A stretch of DNA of 64,000 bases from Nitrospirota bacterium (GTDB lineage: Bacteria; Nitrospirota; Nitrospiria; Nitrospirales; Nitrospiraceae): assembly GCA_963703955.1 (NCBI GenBank), contig CAVPGK010000021.1, positions 32,001 through 96,000 of the forward strand, read 5' to 3'. Of the stretch, positions 8,330 through 22,420 are shown one piece after another (the stretch's first letter is position 1; each line of letters opens with the position of its first letter). Below the pieces are notes generated by a model, which saw only the letters and a list, made by a program, of their open reading frames with translations, did not search any database and was not told where the DNA came from. The position numbers were made by a program, and so were the translations under genes.

Positions 8330-8451
8330 GGAAAGCGCTTGTCCGATTCAGGCTCCGAAGAGGGATTGCATGGACAGAGTTCAAAAAATCCTACGCGAGG
8401 TTTCCACAAGCACCCTAGAAAAACCGAAAGCGAAAAGAGTAGCATACGGCG

Positions 8452-13573: not shown

Positions 13574-13752
13574 GCCGCATGTAATCGAAGCGGCGATTCA
13601 CGCCAAGCAATGTCTACCTGAGGTATTGACTCTCCGCATCTGATCGAAGCGGGCAGCTCAAGAATGTAATGCAGGGGATCGCTGGAGGCACTTATCCGGG
13701 CGCATCAGTTGGAGGTATTGGGTCTCCGGGCCGATTTGATCGAACGGCCCCG
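13574..13752. repeat. Three hairpins with a conserved 11-nt loop downstream of tRNA-Cys
   Basis: gccgc-atgtaatcgaa-gcggc, ccgc-atctgatcgaa-gcgg and gggccg-atttgatcgaa-cggccc. Confidence 0.65.
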
Positions 13753-13771
13753 GCTCACACGAAGTGCGGTT

Positions 13772-13847
13772 TGGAGGCGCCGAGCGGGTTCGAACCGCTG
13801 CATCGCAGTTTTGCAGACTGCTCCCTTAGCCACTTGGGTACGGCGCC
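13772..13847 (-). tRNA. tRNA-Cys(GCA)
   Basis: Reverse complement GGCGCCGTACCCAAGTGGCTAAGGGAGCAGTCTGCAAAACTGCGATGCAGCGGTTCGAACCCGCTCGGCGCCTCCA forms a cloverleaf with GCA anticodon and encoded CCA. Confidence 0.97.
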
Positions 13848-13849
13848 TT
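13806..13849. repeat. att site (44 bp, within the intact tRNA-Cys)
   Basis: cagttttgcagactgctcccttagccacttgggtacggcgcctt. Confidence 0.95.
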
Positions 13850-13871
13850 TGGTTGTGTTTTCAAGCATTTC

Positions 13872-15074
13872 TCACGCAGGCTGCGCCTGGCTCACTAGGC
13901 CAGGTTGCGTCAGGGTTGCGGATTTGGCCGCTTCGGCGCTCATTCCCGGCCCTGCGTCTTGTGGGTCATCCAGTGCCTGCACATGGTGACGATTCGCACC
14001 TGGAAACAGGTAACAATAGATATTCAACGTGACGGAGATAGTACCATGGCCGAGTTGCTCCTGGATATACTTTGGATTGGCCCCTTGCTGAATGAGCAGG
14101 GACGCGAAGGTATGGCGCAGGTCATGAAATCGGACATGCCGCAGACCGGCCGCCTCCAGGCTGCGATACAGGGCCTTCCTCAGCGTGCGGGCACTCAACC
14201 GTTGATCGGAGGGGCCGAGAAATACCCACTCCGGCATCGGCTGGCCCTTCATCGCATACTCTAAACGCCTTGTCTCTTTCAAGGCCGCCAGGACAGCCGC
14301 TAATTGCGGTGACAGATCGACACGCCGGATCTTATGCGTCTTGGGCGTCGTCACCTGATGGCGCACGATTCCGCGCCGCACCTCAAGAAATTGGCCCCGG
14401 AAGTCGATATCCCCCCATTGCAGTCCGATCAATTCGCTTTCCCGCAGTCCGGTTCTGACCGCACAGAGCAAGACGGGATAGAACGCCGCCCAACGGTCCT
14501 GTGCCGTTTTGAGGAGGAGGCGGACTTCCTCAGCGGTCAACGGGTCAATATGGCTATTCGACGTGTCCCGCCGGCTGACCAAGCGGCCAGCGTTCAGGAC
14601 TGGATTGACGGTCACCAATCCATCATCGATGGCATGGTTGTAGGCCTCTTTCAGCGGTGTGAGAATGTTGTGCACGGTTTGCTTCTTGCGCCCGCTCGTC
14701 ACCAGCTCGGCAATCAGGCGCTTGACATCACTCCGCGTGACTTCATGCAGGGACCGCCCGCCGAGCGCCGGCAGAATGTGTTTCACAATGACCTTGCGAT
14801 ACTCGCTCGCCGTGCTTGCCTTACAATGCACGTCCGCATACGAGGAAAGCCACTCCATCAGATAATCCGCCACCGTGGGGATGCGGCCATCCGGCCGGGT
14901 GAGCGCACCTGTTCGCCACTCTGTTCGGCCCATTTCAGCTTGGCCGATAGTTTTTCGGCAAAGGCCTTTGCCTGTTTCTTGTCCTTGCCAAAGATCTTCG
15001 CCTTGCGCCGACCCTTCCAATCCGTCAGAACATACCAACCCTTTCCTGGTCGCTCACGTCAGTTTGACGCCCAT
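13872..15074 (-). CDS. Tyrosine recombinase/integrase (two apparent frameshifts near 15059 and 14908)
   Basis: TGLRESE, HDLRHT, QLGH and TLNIY. RBS AAGGAGG precedes ATG 15074, giving MGVKL/RERPGKGWYVLTDWKGRRKAKIFG after indel correction. Confidence 0.9.
13901..13923. promoter_or_regulatory. Putative integrase arm-type sites (left end)
   Basis: caggttgcgtcagggttgcggat, two GGTTGCG units 11 bp apart. A near-identical pair lies at 20960-20982. Confidence 0.6.
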
Positions 15075-15216
15075 GGGACTTCACCTCCTTCTCGCCGAGC
15101 TCTCGCTCCAACAAGCTCCGAATATACCCGCTCGCGGTGTAGCTCTGTGTCCGCAAAGCGTCGAGCTTCGCCTTCAAGGATAGTGGCAATTGAATGACCA
15201 CTCGTTTCATTTGCAT
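15025..15216 (-). CDS. Small ribbon-helix-helix-like DNA-binding protein upstream of the integrase
   Basis: MKRVVIQLPLSLKAKLDALR...SGYIRSLLERELG has a beta-alpha-alpha pattern. Removing the same extra A as in the integrase would end it at about 15054. Confidence 0.65.
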   Translation of the reverse strand: MQMKRVVIQLPLSLKAKLDALRTQSYTASGYIRSLLERELGEKEVKSHGRQTDVSDQERVGMF

Positions 15217-15236
15217 CTAACTTCATCCTCTCATCC

Positions 15237-15311
15237 GATAATATGGTGTATGATAATATGGTCCCATGATATCAAACTAGCAAGATTGATGTAAAGTGAA
15301 TAAGATTGACA
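15237..15311. promoter_or_regulatory. Divergent promoter/operator region
   Basis: AT-rich, with direct repeats GATAATATGGT x2 and AAGATTGA x2, and TTGACA at 15306, between two divergent RHH-like genes. Confidence 0.5.
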
Positions 15312-15342
15312 GCAACGATGCACGTGGTTACGGTACCGAGCG

Positions 15343-15522
15343 ATGTCGAACGAGACTACACGGCCCGCTAAACAGCAGCTTGGTATCCGTATCGACCAGG
15401 ACGTTGTTGTCGAAACCAAGGTCCTGGCTGCACGCCAGCGCCGACGCGTAAATGAGGTCGTGGAAGAAGCGCTCAAGGATTTACTGAAGAAATATCAGGG
15501 GAAGCGGAAGGAACGGCGATAG
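15343..15522 (+). CDS. Ribbon-helix-helix regulator (59 aa, below the ORF-track cutoff)
   Basis: Manual translation MSNETTRPAKQQLGIRIDQDVVVETKVLAARQRRRVNEVVEEALKDLLKKYQGKRKERR*. Confidence 0.75.
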   Translation: MSNETTRPAKQQLGIRIDQDVVVETKVLAARQRRRVNEVVEEALKDLLKKYQGKRKERR

Positions 15523-15534
15523 GAGTATATTGCC

Positions 15535-16125
15535 TTGACTGAATTCGTTACGTTTGGCGCCCTTGGCGTCATTGTTCTGATCATTGTCCTTGCTGGACGC
15601 CTCCCCCAGATGGGAGAACGTTTGGGGCAACTCCTCAAGCGGAGGCAGGCTTCCGGCAAAAGGGCCTCAGCGGCAGCGATACGTCACGAATCGGTACTTG
15701 CGGAGCAGTGGGCTCCGGCGTGCAGGAGACTAGATACCATCCTAGCCGTTCTCGGTCAGATCGGCGATGCTTTAGTTGTTGAAAGTGAAGCTATGGGGAC
15801 CAAAATTGCGGGGTTAGAGCGGCAGTTCGAACGAGAGTCAACCGCTGACAGAACCGAGGCCTTCAAAGCCCTACAGGATTCTAGTGAAAGGCAGAACCGA
15901 CGTTTGGAAATGGCCCGAGGCCTCTGGGACGAAGCCAATACGCTCGTACGGATTCTCTCTTTGAGTGCTGATGAATTAGCGCTTCAAGGGCATGCGGGGC
16001 GTTTGGGTCTCGGGAACAAGAATCGTGCTTGTCATTTCGCGGGCTTCCAGCGAGTTCGGTTTCTTGTTTTGCTTGTTCCCTTAGATTTACTTTGTCGCGC
16101 AGAAAATTCGCAGACCGGCGTATAA
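15535..16125 (+). CDS. Hypothetical membrane-anchored coiled-coil protein
   Basis: RBS AGGAG precedes TTG. N-terminal TM plus amphipathic helix (GRLPQMGERLG). The C-terminus may be spurious. Confidence 0.5.
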   Translation: MTEFVTFGALGVIVLIIVLAGRLPQMGERLGQLLKRRQASGKRASAAAIRHESVLAEQWAPACRRLDTILAVLGQIGDALVVESEAMGTKIAGLERQFERESTADRTEAFKALQDSSERQNRRLEMARGLWDEANTLVRILSLSADELALQGHAGRLGLGNKNRACHFAGFQRVRFLVLLVPLDLLCRAENSQTGV

Positions 16126-16518
16126 AGACTGATTGGTGGCTACGGTCACTAATCGCTGTCCTATTTCTCAAGCTAGTGAAGCCGTGGCGGGCAGCCACTT
16201 TTGCGAAATGTGCGGAGTCAGCCTGGATCATCGGCGGGCCAACGCACGCACTTGCGGACCGCGATGTCGAAAGCGCTTGAGCCTACGACGCTTACGGCAG
16301 TAAGGGGCTTAGGGCTGGGGTGACTCTTTTCGGCTTCCATCTTTAAATTTCTTAAAATTGTTCAGCCAACCGAGGATGGAGTGGGATGATGGACAGGCGC
16401 GCGGCATCTTGCGTACGCGTGGCTATCGCGGGTTGTTCTATCCGCCTCATCTCCGTTATTCATGCGCCTCTCCTGCCGTTTTCCGGCGATGAAGGACACG
16501 TTTCCCGTATTGTCACGA

Positions 16519-16620
16519 GGAGTGCAGGAGTTGGGCGGATGGGCCAGCCTCTCACTCGTCCAGCGGTATGCGCACGTTTCCCCCGTCCAGGAAGGCGGAG
16601 GCGGTCGAAGAGCTCGTGAG
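16519..16620 (+). pseudogene. C-terminal remnant of a second tyrosine integrase
   Basis: GVQELGGWASLSLVQRYAHVSP matches the box II / catalytic Tyr region of tyrosine recombinases. Confidence 0.75.
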
Positions 16621-16686
16621 AAATTCTACTACGCTATTTACTACGCCCGAAACGCGGCAATTGGTAACCGCTTGAAACTACGGCCC

Positions 16687-16728
16687 GGAGGGGTGACGGA
16701 GCGGCCGAACGTGCCGGTCTTGAAAACC
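16687..16728 (+). pseudogene. 5' half of tRNA-Ser(TGA), att-like remnant
   Basis: GGAGGGGTGACGGAGCGGCCGAACGTGCCGGTCTTGAAAACC gives the acceptor 5' strand, D arm and anticodon arm with TGA. No variable or T arm follows. Confidence 0.8.
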
Positions 16729-16981
16729 TCGCGGAGCGGGGTAACGGAACCCGATGAAAACGCGTGAAACACTGCATGGATACTGGCGAAACGCAGTGAG
16801 CGATCGTTCCCCCGCCGTACCCGAAAGTACCCCGATTTACCCCGGCATTCCCCTACGCGATTCACTACATTTTCTCGCGGCCCCTAGCGATTGCAACGCG
16901 ACAAGGGCGGACACTCTCTCTGCCTTGGGGCCGCGTCTTTGGAGAGGCGCGAGGAGAGACGCGCATGGGCACCACACGAGC

Positions 16982-17158
16982 ATGTGGAATCAGGACTGGT
17001 TCAAGGAAGATGATTACGACGCCGATGACCTGGGCCGATTCCCGCAGGGCGTCGGCTTTCCCGGCGCACAGTCAGCCGACTGGGGCTGGGCGCAACACAT
17101 GCTGGCATCTCTGGCCGAAAACGGACGAGCCGCGATCGTCATCGACACCGCGGGCTAA
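16982..17158 (+). pseudogene. hsdM: Internal fragment of a type I restriction-modification methyltransferase (HsdM)
   Basis: MWNQD...RFP..G.PG..SADWGWAQHMLASLAENGRAAIVIDT resembles the HsdM segment after the catalytic NPxx motif. Confidence 0.7.
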
Positions 17159-17267
17159 AGTGGGGCAGTTCTCTTTTTGAGCAACAAAGCTATCTCACTT
17201 TACCTGACTGCAATTCAGCAGCATACGATCCTGATAGACTTTGGCCCCGAATAAGTCGCGCTTTTAG

Positions 17268-18854
17268 GTGTCGTCAAGGATGCCCCACGAATACAAGACT
17301 CTCCCGCTCGCTGTCTGGAAGCCAATGGCTCAACTTTTCAAGAGAATTTCCGGTTCTACGATTGCGAGCGTTTTGATCCTCATCTGTCTGATCAGCATCC
17401 CGGAGTACATCGTCCAGGGATTGTCGCTGTTTCGTCTCGACGAAGCGGGATACGGAGACAGCTACATCCTCTACGATGTGCTCCAGTTCCAGAAAACCGG
17501 TAGGATCTATCGAAACCTGGCAGAGCCGCCCTTTTTGCCGGCGCAGTACAGCCCTCTCGTTTATGTGCTCTACTCACTTCCAGGGCGCGTGGCGAGTTGG
17601 GAGAATCTCTTCGTGGCGCCGCGGCTGGTCGCGATTGCCGCATTCCTTGCCTGCATCTGTCTGATTACATCCATTGTCCGTGTTCTCTTTCGTTCAGGCC
17701 TGGTTTGGGTCTGGGGTCTTCTCCTTCCGTTTTCAATCCGCCTTATACCCCTCTGGATTCTTCAGCTGCGTGGCGACTTTCCGGGGCTCGCTCTCAGTCT
17801 GCTTGCGATTCGCTTCCTGTTATCCGACTCTCGCTGGGCGGTGCCGCTTGCCGCGGTGTGTGCAGGATTGGCAGTACAAGTAAAGTTCACATTCGTCGCT
17901 GCGGCCTCAGCAGGGGCTGCATGGCTGCTGGTTCAAAGACGATGGCGAGACCTCGCTCGATTTATCGCGTTCTTTGCGGTCTCATCCATGGGCCTGTTTC
18001 TTCTCTATTCTCTGCGTGAGCCAGGGATGATTTCACAAATGCTCTCCCTGTCTCCCGGTGTCAGAAACGTCGGCGGAAACGTGGTGCTCATGAATAAGGT
18101 AGCCGGCGAACTCGTGATACTTCTGAGCCTGGTCGGTCTGGCAAGTATGGAATGGCGCGCGTCGGCAAAGGAAACCCTCCTGGCTCTCTATCTTGCAACA
18201 TCCTTCATGGTTGCCGCCGTGACGGCCGTTCAGGCAGGTGCGAATACCAACTACTATTGGGAAACGCTCTTCGCTTCCATCCCCTTTGCTGTGCTCGGAG
18301 TGTTGCGGCTGATGGAACTGGCAGGACGGCATACGGCGCTGGGGCCGGCACTGGCTGTCTTCCTTTTCATTCATTCCCTCTTTCCTGTCGCGATGAGCGC
18401 GTATGAAGGCGTCCCAACGCTCAAAAAGGGATGGGCGGAATCCGGCGACGATGAAATGCGCAAACTGAGCCAGGTTCTGGCAGGCTCGCGCATGTTCTCA
18501 TCGTTTCCGCGTCTGGCTCTCCTTGACCCCAATCCTCCCTTGACGGAACCTTTCCTTCTGTCCTACCTTCACCGCCTCGGGAAAGTGGATCTGGGACCCT
18601 TCACACAGCCTCTCCTCAGACGCGAATATGATGTTGTGATTACCTATGATTCGCCGCGCGTCTATCGCAATGTCAACCAGTTAGACCCGGAACTGCGTAG
18701 CGCCATCGCGAGTTCGTACAAGCCGTATTGCACGTTCCACCATGGCCTGTTCCACTTCCCGGATGGTGTGGATCCGTCCACGAGCATCCTGAAGGGGCGC
18801 TTGAGAGAGATTGGTTGCTCGCCGGTTTCCGACGAAGGCACGAAGAACTGGTAG
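17268..18854 (+). CDS. Polytopic membrane protein, probable GT-C-fold glycosyltransferase
   Basis: About 11 hydrophobic segments, N-terminal loop YGDSYI...YSPLVY, RGD and VKFT, plus a soluble C-terminal domain. Lies next to a GT2. Confidence 0.6.
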   Translation: MSSRMPHEYKTLPLAVWKPMAQLFKRISGSTIASVLILICLISIPEYIVQGLSLFRLDEAGYGDSYILYDVLQFQKTGRIYRNLAEPPFLPAQYSPLVYVLYSLPGRVASWENLFVAPRLVAIAAFLACICLITSIVRVLFRSGLVWVWGLLLPFSIRLIPLWILQLRGDFPGLALSLLAIRFLLSDSRWAVPLAAVCAGLAVQVKFTFVAAASAGAAWLLVQRRWRDLARFIAFFAVSSMGLFLLYSLREPGMISQMLSLSPGVRNVGGNVVLMNKVAGELVILLSLVGLASMEWRASAKETLLALYLATSFMVAAVTAVQAGANTNYYWETLFASIPFAVLGVLRLMELAGRHTALGPALAVFLFIHSLFPVAMSAYEGVPTLKKGWAESGDDEMRKLSQVLAGSRMFSSFPRLALLDPNPPLTEPFLLSYLHRLGKVDLGPFTQPLLRREYDVVITYDSPRVYRNVNQLDPELRSAIASSYKPYCTFHHGLFHFPDGVDPSTSILKGRLREIGCSPVSDEGTKNW

Positions 18855-19011
18855 TTAAGTGCTATAGGCATCCTGATACCAAGATGTTAGAGTTACTGCC
18901 ACTTCTGAACCTGCGTTTGCTGGAAGTCTGAAACGAAGCTTCTACATACGATTGGTTTGTCATCTCCTTCTGTTAGGTGTCGAAAAGCAGCTGAGAGCAG
19001 AATGGTGAACC

Positions 19012-20022
19012 ATGCGAAAAGTCGTCACAGCCACCTCTGCAACGCAAGCCAGGAGGCTGCCTCCTCTTTTCTTCTTGGGCAGCCTCATGATCGTATTCGG
19101 CCTCGGTGTGTATTTCTTCGGCATCGTCTTCTCGATGTTCCGCCTGATCTTCCAGTTGGGAGAACCGTTCTATACGTGGAACACGATGATTCTGTGGTAT
19201 AGCGGTCTTCCTACCACACTGGGCGTTTGTCTCGCAGGTCTTGATCTGGCCCTGCTGTTTCCCGCAAAGCGCAGAGAGTCGCGGCGAAGGATTCTCGCTC
19301 CCGTTCTGGACAGACACGTGGTCGTGGCGCTGACAGCCTACAATGACGAAAAGAGCATAGGGCTTGCGGTGGCGGATTTCGTGAGCCACCCACTAGTAAA
19401 GCGCGTCATCGTTGTCGACAACAACAGCCGTGATCGGACTTCCGAAGCTGCCATGGAAGCGGGAGCCCGTGTCGTTGTGGAAAAAGAACCGGGATATGGA
19501 CGATGCGTCTATAGATGCTTCAAGGAAGCCCTGAGCGAAGACGGCGAATTGATCGTTCTCTGCGAGGGCGATATGACCTTCCGCGCCGGCGACATTGACA
19601 AACTGCTGGCCTATGTCGACCATGCCGATGTCGTGAATGGCACGCGTATCGTCGAGCAACTGCGGGATTACTCCACGCAGTTATCGACGTTCATGTATTA
19701 CGGCAACTTCTTTGTGGGAAAGTTGCTGGAACTGAAGCATCTGGGACGCGGCACATTCACGGACATCGGAACAACCTATAAGCTGCTCCGGAGAGACAGT
19801 CTTGTGCGTCTGATGCCGCAACTGAATCCGGCGGTCAATATGGAGTTCAATGCGCACTTTCTCGACACGGCTCTTGGAAGCGGCGAAAGGCTCGTCGAGT
19901 GTCCGATTACGTTTCACCCCAGAGTGGGTGTAAGCAAGGGCGGCAATGTGAATAATGGGCGTGCACTGAAAGTCGGACTCCGGATGATCCTGGGCTTGTG
20001 CTTTGGATGGCCTACCCCATGA
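19012..20022 (+). CDS. Family 2 glycosyltransferase (polyprenol-phosphate glycosyltransferase-like) with two N-terminal TMs
   Basis: TAYNDEKSI, VVDNNSRDRT, GYGR, EGD (DxD variant), VNGTR and RVGVSK. Confidence 0.88.
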   Translation: MRKVVTATSATQARRLPPLFFLGSLMIVFGLGVYFFGIVFSMFRLIFQLGEPFYTWNTMILWYSGLPTTLGVCLAGLDLALLFPAKRRESRRRILAPVLDRHVVVALTAYNDEKSIGLAVADFVSHPLVKRVIVVDNNSRDRTSEAAMEAGARVVVEKEPGYGRCVYRCFKEALSEDGELIVLCEGDMTFRAGDIDKLLAYVDHADVVNGTRIVEQLRDYSTQLSTFMYYGNFFVGKLLELKHLGRGTFTDIGTTYKLLRRDSLVRLMPQLNPAVNMEFNAHFLDTALGSGERLVECPITFHPRVGVSKGGNVNNGRALKVGLRMILGLCFGWPTP

Positions 20023-20657
20023 CGCGAGAAATGTACTTTAAGACGCGGTTCGTGCAGGACGCACAACGCGATGTCCTCTGGCAGACTCTTTGTCGCTACT
20101 ACTTCAGCCATCGGATTAACCCTGACGATTGCGTGCTGGAACTTGGCGCGGGATATGCCTGCTTTATCAATGCCGTCGTCGCCAAGCGAAGAATCGCTGT
20201 CGATTCATGGGATGGTTTCACCAAACATCTGGTATCCGGTGTGGAAGGCCACGTCGGTGACGTGACCGATCTCGGATTTCTAAAGCCTTCATCCGTGAAT
20301 TTCGTTTTCGCCAGTAACCTCTTCGAGCACGTCAGCCAGGAGGCCTTCGCCTTGGTGTTGCAACAACTGAAGACTGCGCTGGCGCGCGGCGGAACTCTGA
20401 ATATCCTGCAGCCCAACTACTATTACGCATATCGGGAGTACTTCGACGATTACACCCACCGCACCGTATATACCCACAAGAGCATTTGTGATTTTCTGGA
20501 AGCATATGGCTACAAGGTAATGGAATGCCATCCGCGATTCCTGCCACTCACGGTGAAATCCCGGTTACCTGTCTCACCGATACTGATACGACTTTATCTG
20601 TCCCTTCCCTGGAAGCCGATGGGGAAGCAGATGTTCATTCGCGCAAGGGTGAAGTGA
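20019..20657 (+). CDS. Class I SAM-dependent methyltransferase
   Basis: VLELGAGYA, SNLFEH and YFDDYTH. ATGA overlap with the GT2. Confidence 0.88.
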   Translation: MTREMYFKTRFVQDAQRDVLWQTLCRYYFSHRINPDDCVLELGAGYACFINAVVAKRRIAVDSWDGFTKHLVSGVEGHVGDVTDLGFLKPSSVNFVFASNLFEHVSQEAFALVLQQLKTALARGGTLNILQPNYYYAYREYFDDYTHRTVYTHKSICDFLEAYGYKVMECHPRFLPLTVKSRLPVSPILIRLYLSLPWKPMGKQMFIRARVK

Positions 20658-20959
20658 AGAACGCCGGGCTCACGCGTAGTGAGACCCGGGATAGAGCAGT
20701 TCATCCTAGCGTTTGGAGATCGTGTTTACCGCCTGGCATACAAGCACCTGCGGCCAGAGGAGTACAGCCTGCTGGTCAGGCTGCCCCACTACAGCCGTAG
20801 GATCAGCCAGGAAGCGCATAGGACCGTCCTTCGCACCGATCCCCGAGAGGCGGTCATTTTCAAAAGTTGTGCGGGAGGGATAAACGCCACTGAGACGGTG
20901 GTGGCTGGGGGAGCGCTGCCCCCGGCCTCCCACCATCCCTTGAATGCCGGCGCCCCGCG

Positions 20960-21016
20960 CAGGTTGCGGCTGGGTTGCGGAGTTGCGGACAGGTGGCTAA
21001 GGTATGACGCAACCTG
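20960..21016. promoter_or_regulatory. Putative integrase arm-type sites (right end)
   Basis: caggttgcggctgggttgcggagttgcgg plus an inverted copy acgcaacctg. Confidence 0.6.
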
Positions 21017-21072
21017 CCCACTGCCTGACACACAAGATGTTGTGGAACCAAGCACTTAGGGTGGACTACTAT

Positions 21073-21116
21073 CAGTTTTGCAGACTGCTCCCTTAGCCAC
21101 TTGGGTACGGCGCCTT
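21073..21116 (-). repeat. att site: orphan 5' half of tRNA-Cys
   Basis: Identical to 13806-13849. Covers tRNA positions 1-42 only. Confidence 0.95.
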
Positions 21117-21122
21117 GACGGC

Positions 21123-21152
21123 ATTATAGCGAGCCGTCCCGCTACAACTCAA
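21123..21152 (-). promoter_or_regulatory. Sigma70 promoter, probably the native tRNA-Cys promoter
   Basis: Minus strand TTGAGT-N18-TATAAT, ending 8 nt before the tRNA 5' half. Confidence 0.8.
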
Positions 21153-21220: not shown

Positions 21221-22420
21221 CTACCGCTTGTTGGGAAGGACGGGGATTTCTCGAGTCGAGGACGACTGTGTGCTTGTCAATGACACCGGCTGTTCGGGGT
21301 ACCTTTTTCCACCATGAAGTGATGGGGCCGATTCGATCTGGTCAGAATCCTCCGCTTCTTTCTCTTTCGCCAAAATTTCGACTTCCTGAATCAGTGTCTC
21401 CATCAACTCTTCGGAGGGCACCTTGCGCAAAAGCTTGCCCTTCTTGAAAAGAATCCCGACACCTTCGCCGCCCGCGATGCCGATATCCGCTTCCTTCCCC
21501 TCGCCGATGCCGTTGACCACGCAGCCTAACACCGAGACGTTCAACGGGGCTCTGATGTGGCCGAGGCGCTTCTCCAACTCGTTCGCCAGGCGGACCACAT
21601 CGATCTCCACTCGGCCGCAGGTGGGGCAGGCGATCACGTTGATCCCGCGGTGGCGCAGTTCCAGCGACTTCAGAATTTCAAATCCGACCTTGACCTCTTC
21701 CACGGGGTCGGCCGCCAACGAGACACGGAGCGTATCACCGATGCCTTGCGACAGCAGCCAGCCGATGCCGATGGCCGATTTCACCGAGCCGGTCAGAATC
21801 GTACCGGCTTCGGTGATCCCCAAATGGAGCGGGAAATTGGACTGCTGCGAGAACAGCCAGTAGGCATCGACCGCCATGTGCACGTCAGACGCTTTCAGCG
21901 ACACTTTCATGTTGGTAAAGCCCACGTCCTCAAGCGCGTGCACGGCGTTCAGCGCAGATTCCGCCAGGGCTTCAGCCGTCGGATAGCCATATTTGTCGAG
22001 CAGGTGTCTCTCTAACGACCCGCCGTTTACGCCGATGCGTAAAGGAATCCCCCGGTCATTGACCGCCCTGATGACCTCGGCGGTCTTCCACCACGCACCG
22101 ATATTGCCCGGATTGATGCGCACGCAATCAACCACTTCGGCCGCCTTCAACGCCAGCCTATGGTCGAAATGAATATCGGAGATCAGCGGCACGGTCATCT
22201 GCGCCTTGATTTTGGGCAGCGCGTTGGCAGCCTCCATGTCCGGCACCGCCACGCGGATGACCTCGCAGCCAGCCTCCTCTAAACGGCGAATCTGCTCGAC
22301 CGTCGCCTTGATGTCGCGAGTGTCGGTAGTCGTCATGGATTGGACGGAGACTGGCGCGTCCCCTCCGATCTTGACCTTGCCGACCTTGATCTGTCTGGTT
22401 TTTCGCCGCGTGATGTACAT
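21221..22420 (-). CDS. ispG: (E)-4-hydroxy-3-methylbut-2-enyl-diphosphate synthase
   Basis: [31 protein letters not shown] and GCVVNG. Confidence 0.97.

Follow-up and report, generated by a model that had tools for sequence, protein, structure and literature searches.

The closest described systems are genomic islands that displace the 5' fragment of a tRNA gene, which account for 159 of the 3,919 islands listed in the Islander study (Hudson, Lau and Williams, PMC4383910, Table 1). In the available portions of later papers, Zhao and Williams (2002) are cited for the reversed target orientation, with archaeal cases as well (PMC6563490), and are cited again in PMC1635311. Here we describe an island of 7,267 bp (13850-21116), of the tyrosine-integrase type, that occupies a tRNA-Cys gene in a 64,000-nucleotide stretch of a Nitrospirota bacterium (contig CAVPGK010000021.1, positions 32,001 to 96,000; hereafter the window, whose own numbering is used throughout). 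The locus holds an intact tRNA with a 5' fragment upstream on the same strand, a PF00589 integrase, a length within the 2-200 kb range of Islander and an empty site in relatives. Judged by its sequence, the island is a member of the catalogued class with reversed orientation, a 5' fragment and an anticodon-centred target, a class that is rare and already known.

The architecture can be read with near certainty as that of a 5'-side island that rebuilds tRNA-Cys and leaves the native promoter with an orphan half gene. The features that define it are the following:

13772-13847, minus strand: intact tRNA-Cys(GCA), 5' half from the island and 3' half from the host (ARAGORN, BLAST, Rfam)
13806-13849, minus strand: copy of the attachment (att) core at the tRNA end, 44 bp (repeat search)
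13850-13926, minus strand: att arm at the integrase end, with an IHF-like site (13859-13871) and tandem CGCAACC arm-type repeats (13901-13926)
13872-15074, minus strand: tyrosine integrase with the R-K-H-R-H-Y residues present (PF00589, 113 bits)
20960-21072, minus strand: att arm at the host-promoter end, with CGCAACC repeats (20960-20990) and an IHF-like site (21046-21058)
21073-21116, minus strand: att core copy that is the displaced, orphan host 5' half of tRNA-Cys
21123-21152, minus strand: native tRNA-Cys promoter, TTGAGT-18-TATAAT
21221-22420, minus strand: ispG, a host gene and the native upstream neighbour of tRNA-Cys in relatives

A preliminary description of this DNA had placed a 44-bp repeat over the 5' half of the tRNA and not its 3' end, and this is exact: the perfect direct repeat (13806-13849 and 21073-21116) spans tRNA positions -2 to +42. 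It stops in the 3' strand of the anticodon stem, where its end forms a symmetric CAGT-CTGCAAA-ACTG around the anticodon loop, and this symmetry, together with a block that ends at position 42, makes it likely that the crossover lies within the 7-nt loop. With the tRNA as query, BLAST recovered positions 1-42 at the second site; for the 3' part, it gave nothing longer than matches of 13-17 nt. As had also been described, the near-consensus promoter (21152-21123) precedes the orphan half and is directed into the island, and 24 nt separate the integrase stop codon (13872-13874) from the intact tRNA. Tandem CGCAACC repeats lie inside both island ends, facing inward, and are kept at the ends of homologous integrases both of the 5' type (inserted into the tRNA 5' end) and of the 3' type (converging on the 3' end). 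The two sites between arm repeats and core resemble the IHF consensus. Short palindromic repeats were additionally seen past the tRNA 3' end (13575-13770).

Comparison with relatives establishes which flank is native. The tRNA-Cys 5' half has a match in 36 of 40 relatives, at one place in 35 of them and at two in G022. In 26 of 29 loci of relatives (25 of 28 without the unpublished genome G006, on which nothing hinges), a whole tRNA-Cys lies downstream of ispG, with a TATAAT 14-26 nt before the tRNA. Since these loci join the promoter on the ispG side to the whole tRNA, the DNA from 21117 onward is the native upstream sequence and that from 13850 onward is not, which is the outcome that the preliminary description had proposed for island-free relatives. 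Two of the remaining three loci stop at contig ends, and in the third, in G015, the tRNA-Cys lies 3.4 kb further with the same promoter. At this G015 locus (L111, C8:1-4500), two genes stand between ispG and the tRNA and the native-type promoter is retained before the tRNA; by eye, the two genes resemble those of topoisomerase VI subunits. The junction between integrase and tRNA-Cys recurs in a contig of another study, with 13 differing letters over 13771-13993, while the contigs of four sequencing runs include none across the whole island. On the left, no gene-level synteny was found in nine loci. The first 14 bases after the tRNA 3' end, which are shared with the tRNA-Cys of G023, were discarded as a marker of the native flank because they also follow a tRNA-Pro of G013. 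The host is Nitrospira-like: the nearest integrases are in Nitrospirota records, and a genome of the same family shares the element with a named Nitrospira record.

The explanation that we favour, with a probability of roughly 0.55 as a whole, is that a small integrative element, equipped with a tyrosine integrase of the lambda type, entered tRNA-Cys by recombination at the anticodon loop, with the polarity of its attP reversed. The sequence and the relatives show that the host promoter and 5' half stayed at 21073-21152 and that the element's own copy of the 5' half was joined to the host 3' half at 13772-13849. Because the native promoter stays with the displaced half, the rebuilt tRNA-Cys would need a promoter in island DNA. 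The main source would be a dedicated promoter in the 3' end of the integrase gene, TG-G-TACTAT at 14038-14046, with a leader some 190 nt long. Read-through from the operon of the integrase and a ribbon-helix-helix (RHH) gene may contribute. The integrase N-terminus was later disrupted, which has probably fixed the island. That the tRNA-Cys is transcribed from island DNA is most likely, whereas the assignment to this particular promoter is about an even bet. The preliminary description had proposed that the tRNA supply may depend on the RHH-integrase transcript. Dependence on island DNA is indeed likely, given the displaced native promoter and the lack of a second gene: tRNA-Cys is single among the 38 tRNA genes of G000, the genome of the window (an assembly that is 82% complete), and an Rfam search of G000 added only the orphan half, weakly.

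To place the integrase, we collected 260 loci with an integrase match, a count that includes the window itself and near-duplicates. At 50% identity or more, 11 loci are inserted into the tRNA 5' end, four converge on the 3' end and four have no tRNA; between 35% and 50%, all 35 loci with a downstream tRNA are of the 3' type; and below 35%, 13 further loci of the 5' type appear. In a quick tree of 91 rows with Shimodaira-Hasegawa-like approximate likelihood ratio (SH-aLRT) support, the window integrase, nine 5'-type rows and L118 form one branch (support 96) amid 3'-type neighbours, and their targets are Cys, Ser-TGA and Ser-GCT. Eleven further 5'-type rows make up a second clade (support 100), whose targets are of seven amino-acid types. 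On this evidence, the polarity of insertion is a trait of the integrase clade that is kept across tRNA targets. Displaced 5' halves lie 25-81 kb upstream of the tRNA in three genomes with Ser-TGA islands and on a separate contig in a fourth, and are found upstream in L160, L409 and L411 too; L118 and L134 end in orphan 5' halves. No further close member of the window clade was found in viral contigs or in the order of G705. In L301 and L307 (G293), the rebuilt 5' half of tRNA-Ser(TGA) differs from the displaced one, so that the island seems to have changed the sequence of this tRNA, and an AT-rich stretch before it holds TG-G-TATAAT at -44.

Within the window, promoters were ranked with a simple sigma-70 score devised for this analysis. 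The last 80 nt before the tRNA reach a best score of 5.9, compared with 9.0-11.1 for 27 native Cys promoters. The earlier remark that the intact tRNA has no evident promoter thus holds for these 80 nt but overlooks a weak candidate further upstream, inside the integrase:

14038-14046, minus strand: candidate extended -10, TG-G-TACTAT, 196 nt upstream of the tRNA and spelled by the His-Gly-Thr-Ile codons that follow the LGH motif

This site was picked before homologues were compared. L031, L032 and L231 have TG-G-TAGTAT at the matching place. A TAnnAT hexamer occupies the position in all eight distinct 5'-type clade rows with an intact tRNA and in neither of the two orphans. Several observations weigh against giving the site a dedicated role. 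Among 3'-type rows, a TAnnAT is also present in one of 19 close ones (L363, a manual addition) and in five of 70 distant ones; 17% of random 260-nt windows of the genome equal the score of TG-G-TACTAT; and the site, which has no good -35, reaches p = 0.20 against synonymous recoding. Furthermore, apart from an inherited codon type, its conservation comes down to about one synonymous base; four clade members are in any case identical at 4 of 44 fourfold sites (about 9%); and the eight rows represent about six lineages with common ancestry. A promoter-like site also lies upstream of the integrase gene in every clade member examined. We regard TG-G-TACTAT as a suggestive promoter candidate, weak when taken alone.

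Other candidates were set aside. The TTGA 12-17 nt before the tRNA would, as a -35, put its -10 inside the tRNA, and 3'-type arms share the motif. TGG-TATGTT at 15034 (score 9.7) is made of Trp-Tyr-Val codons, and its hexamer is not kept in the homologues shown. A TATACT at the catalytic Tyr codon is found in six of eight 5'-type clade rows and in the 3'-type L123, and is not in the window. The idea that integrase stubs persist because they drive tRNAs was likewise dropped as evidence, as stubs also adjoin 3'-type tRNAs of G000 (Met, Lys, Leu-CAG, Arg-CCT).

An indication that a 5'-side integrase can carry a tRNA promoter comes from the second 5'-type clade, which has close members in Chloroflexota genomes (L154, L155, L158, L160, L169, L176, L183, L187, L190, L344 and L345) and whose targets include Ser, Thr, Phe, Lys, Trp and Arg. 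Here, TTTAC[AT]-17-TATAAT falls within the integrase gene, in the stretch between the LGH motif and a point shortly after the catalytic Tyr. It is present in 9 of the 11 first-round loci, in both later loci and in none of three 3'-type sisters; in L158 the -10 is about 145 nt before the tRNA at 8391. When the nine carriers were compared, leaving out the two non-carriers, 3 of 107 codons at invariant residues were identical in DNA (Phe, His and Ile), and all three fall in the two hexamers. Two further 5'-type lineages have different good promoters at -110 and -15. Under synonymous recoding with the protein held fixed, p < 0.05 was reached in 6 of 22 integrase ends of the 5' type versus 0 of 64 of the 3' type, with median p values of 0.18 and 0.80, among kin that are not independent. 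The same test gave an observation on the 3' type itself: sense-strand promoter scores in its 64 ends are below the synonymous-recoding expectation, as if these ends avoided promoters firing antisense into the tRNA.

We consider the apparently synonymously fixed promoter of the Chloroflexota integrase clade, which lies outside the window, to be the most interesting result of the analysis. For the window it counts with a reservation, as the strong promoter sits in another clade with an integrase about 33% identical, and two of the 11 first-round loci are without it. The wider proposal, for which we see slightly less than an even chance, is that a host-tRNA promoter has arisen repeatedly in 5'-side integrases, in synonymous codons of their catalytic domain, that TG-G-TACTAT would be the version of the window's clade, and that Nitrospira-like genomes are unusually rich in such elements. 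If this were true, the same DNA would encode the active-site region and drive an essential host gene, a clade could switch tRNA targets at constant polarity, and the 3' end of the integrase would be under host selection. No account of a tRNA promoter supplied by or inside an integrase gene was found in the literature searched, which mostly excluded subscription journals.

The integrase of the window appears to be damaged. Compared with homologues, it has gained a base near 15059, which leads to a stop at codon 7, and has lost one near 14906. The two changes put the first ~55 residues out of frame, with the homologous N-terminal peptide in another frame between the two sites; a 388-residue frame is open from a TTG at 15038. 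The out-of-frame region, which is matched by no family model, we take from its position to be the arm-binding region. None of 21 control genes in G000 is frameshifted, so both breaks are probably real, and the island is probably fixed. With the integrase frameshifted twice, self-excision is unlikely, as is the live promoter switch put forward in the preliminary description. The geometry does permit a switch, as integration swaps the upstream DNA of the tRNA, but the frameshifts speak against it, and the contigs of 4 of 24 listed runs, which cannot show absence, held no joint that skips the island or closes a circle. Protection of the left end from deletion, suggested in the same description, is weak: the displaced half is undamaged (44 of 44 positions identical), so precise excision would restore both gene and native promoter, and the host would be harmed only if the left end were lost imprecisely. 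The stubs that 3'-type tRNAs of G000 keep as well mean that stub retention is no test of such protection.

Rival sources of the tRNA-Cys transcript involve the region upstream of the integrase, which is organized as follows:

15025-15216, minus strand: small CopG/RHH-like gene that overlaps the integrase start, 66% identical to its L032 counterpart
15266-15295, minus strand: promoter-like site of the RHH-integrase operon, TTTACA-18-TG.TATCAT
15343-15522, plus strand: divergent gene for an Arc-like ribbon-helix-helix repressor

The CopG/RHH-like gene may encode a directionality factor or a regulator. Under one alternative, which we hold to be unlikely though the most serious of the rivals, tRNA-Cys would be cut from the RHH-integrase operon transcript starting near 15260, and its supply would follow the regulation of the island. 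The site at 15295-15266 is the best promoter-like sequence in the 1.65 kb upstream on the same strand (score 11.1; 10 of 12 consensus positions), only a single weak terminator-like hairpin (15052-15036) lies en route, and the gap from stop codon to tRNA is short both here (24 nt) and in L031 and L032 (27-31 nt). A promoter-like site for that transcript is present, but it is 1.4 kb from the tRNA and faces the gene of the Arc-like repressor, which would presumably dampen its activity while the island is integrated. Similar promoters precede the integrase in 3'-type relatives (L034), so control of the integrase explains the site. The RHH pair is, moreover, missing from some 5'-type members (L406 and the L119 group), and the early stop in the integrase may expose the message to Rho, which is present in G000, unless translation restarts at 15038. 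Transcription from the native promoter at 21152 through the entire 7.3-kb island is very improbable. That promoter is strong and conserved, and no intrinsic terminator was found on the minus strand from 21116 to 15052, but in a Rho-bearing cell about 5.8 kb of the transcript would go untranslated and run antisense to the cargo genes, and in the homologous Ser-TGA islands the same route would have to cross the 25-81 kb noted above.

The two other alternatives concern the assembly. A second tRNA-Cys gene could lie in its unassembled part, so that the copy described here need not be expressed. Several tRNA types are indeed missing from the assembly, and G022 has two Cys loci; on the other hand, the single location in 35 of the 36 relatives with a match, together with a gene that is identical to those of many relatives and has no sign of decay, makes this about as improbable as read-through from the native promoter. 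Least probable of all is an artefact of assembly at a repeated tRNA. Although this is a metagenome assembly for which no contig of the four runs spans the island, the arm repeats point inward at both ends, the integrase-tRNA junction recurs in the contig of another study, and homologues have the same layout.

Insertion from the 5' side is not confined to tRNA-Cys in this genome. Four more displaced 5' halves, each at the position that the whole gene occupies in relatives (five were searched per gene), were located in G000 as follows:

C17:335922-335959: Gly-GCC
C15:177583-177622: Leu-CAA
C11:74138-74181: Pro-TGG
C21:5601-5641: Thr-CGT

At least five tRNA genes of G000, Cys included, have therefore been struck from the 5' side. 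The assembly has no intact Thr-CGT gene, and the rebuilt Leu-CAA gene is separated from the integrase by an insertion sequence. With about eight G000 tRNA genes carrying 3'-type islands or relics, the 5' share appears far above the 4% of Islander, in what is one genome only. Integrase stubs or IHF-like arms also lie directly upstream of Ser-TGA (two copies), Gly-CCC and Ser-GCT of G000 (C6:160306, C16:1285, C15:123972 and C6:176489), the C16 stub having TTGCCA-17-TATCAT at -179. Additional 5' fragments, from Ser-CGA, Pro and Arg genes, were seen at C11:272563, C6:62676 and C6:184255. The complete relative G001 has a 32-kb 5'-type island in tRNA-Pro(TGG) (C1:3655817 and 3688282; L449 and L451), the arms of which resemble those of the G000 Pro island.

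The remainder of the window island consists of the following features:

15535-16125, plus strand: open reading frame (ORF) of 196 residues without a family match
16520-16728, plus strand: relic of another 5'-type element, with the decayed C-terminus of a different integrase, an IHF-like arm and a tRNA-Ser(TGA) half
16754-17158, plus strand: fragment of an N6-DNA methylase gene
17268-20657, plus strand: cargo, with a 528-residue protein without a family match, a GT2 glycosyltransferase (19012-20022) and an S-adenosylmethionine (SAM) methyltransferase (19998-20657)

The relic ends in the 5' half of tRNA-Ser(TGA), positions 1-42 (16687-16728), and resembles the DNA before both Ser-TGA genes of G000. 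The cargo is transcribed towards the native promoter. The glycosyltransferase cargo (16981-20900) recurs at high identity in contigs from three further studies. Some of these contigs end in unrelated DNA, and the cargo may therefore move independently of the island. Models of XerC, XerD and the integron integrase score the island integrase far under their cut-offs. No additional whole tRNA is present, and capsid, terminase, primase and AlpA genes are absent among the island ORFs scanned, with unscanned small ORFs that could hold relics.

As a whole, the island is an ordinary and probably immobile member of its class. Its interest lies in a problem that ordinary islands escape, as an insertion from the 5' side costs the host its tRNA promoter, and our comparison suggests that some 5'-side islands solve it by a promoter hidden in the integrase gene. 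If this is general, integrase remnants before tRNA genes would be working promoters and not junk, and integration vectors made from such integrases would have to retain the promoter stretch.

Compared with the 5'-fragment islands of Islander, as far as the accessible part of that paper (PMC4383910) describes them, the window island has no architectural difference. That part of the paper does not discuss the tRNA promoter. What the present comparison would add is that polarity tracks integrase clades over several tRNA targets, that a promoter appears to be coded inside the integrase gene in one clade, and that a single genome has taken at least five 5'-side hits. Archaeal 5'-side integration shares the side and is, in the text available to us, described as considerably rarer than 3' integration, in hosts and with promoters that differ. 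The phage-inducible chromosomal islands (PICIs) of PMC10111431, in the portion accessible, inflict damage on the tRNA fragment that they displace, and they may work in the manner of an addiction module; the shared idea is that a tRNA ties the host to the island, but here the displaced half is undamaged and primase and capsid genes were not found among the ORFs scanned. The tRNA-dependent lysogeny of Guerrero-Bustamante and Hatfull (2024, PMC10865867) has in common with our reading, as far as its available text goes, that an essential host tRNA depends on an integrated element. In that system, the core spans about 10 bp, and instead of rebuilding the host gene the phage contributes a complete tRNA under its own promoter. 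In the window island, by contrast, a 44-bp block restores the gene, which loses nothing but its promoter.

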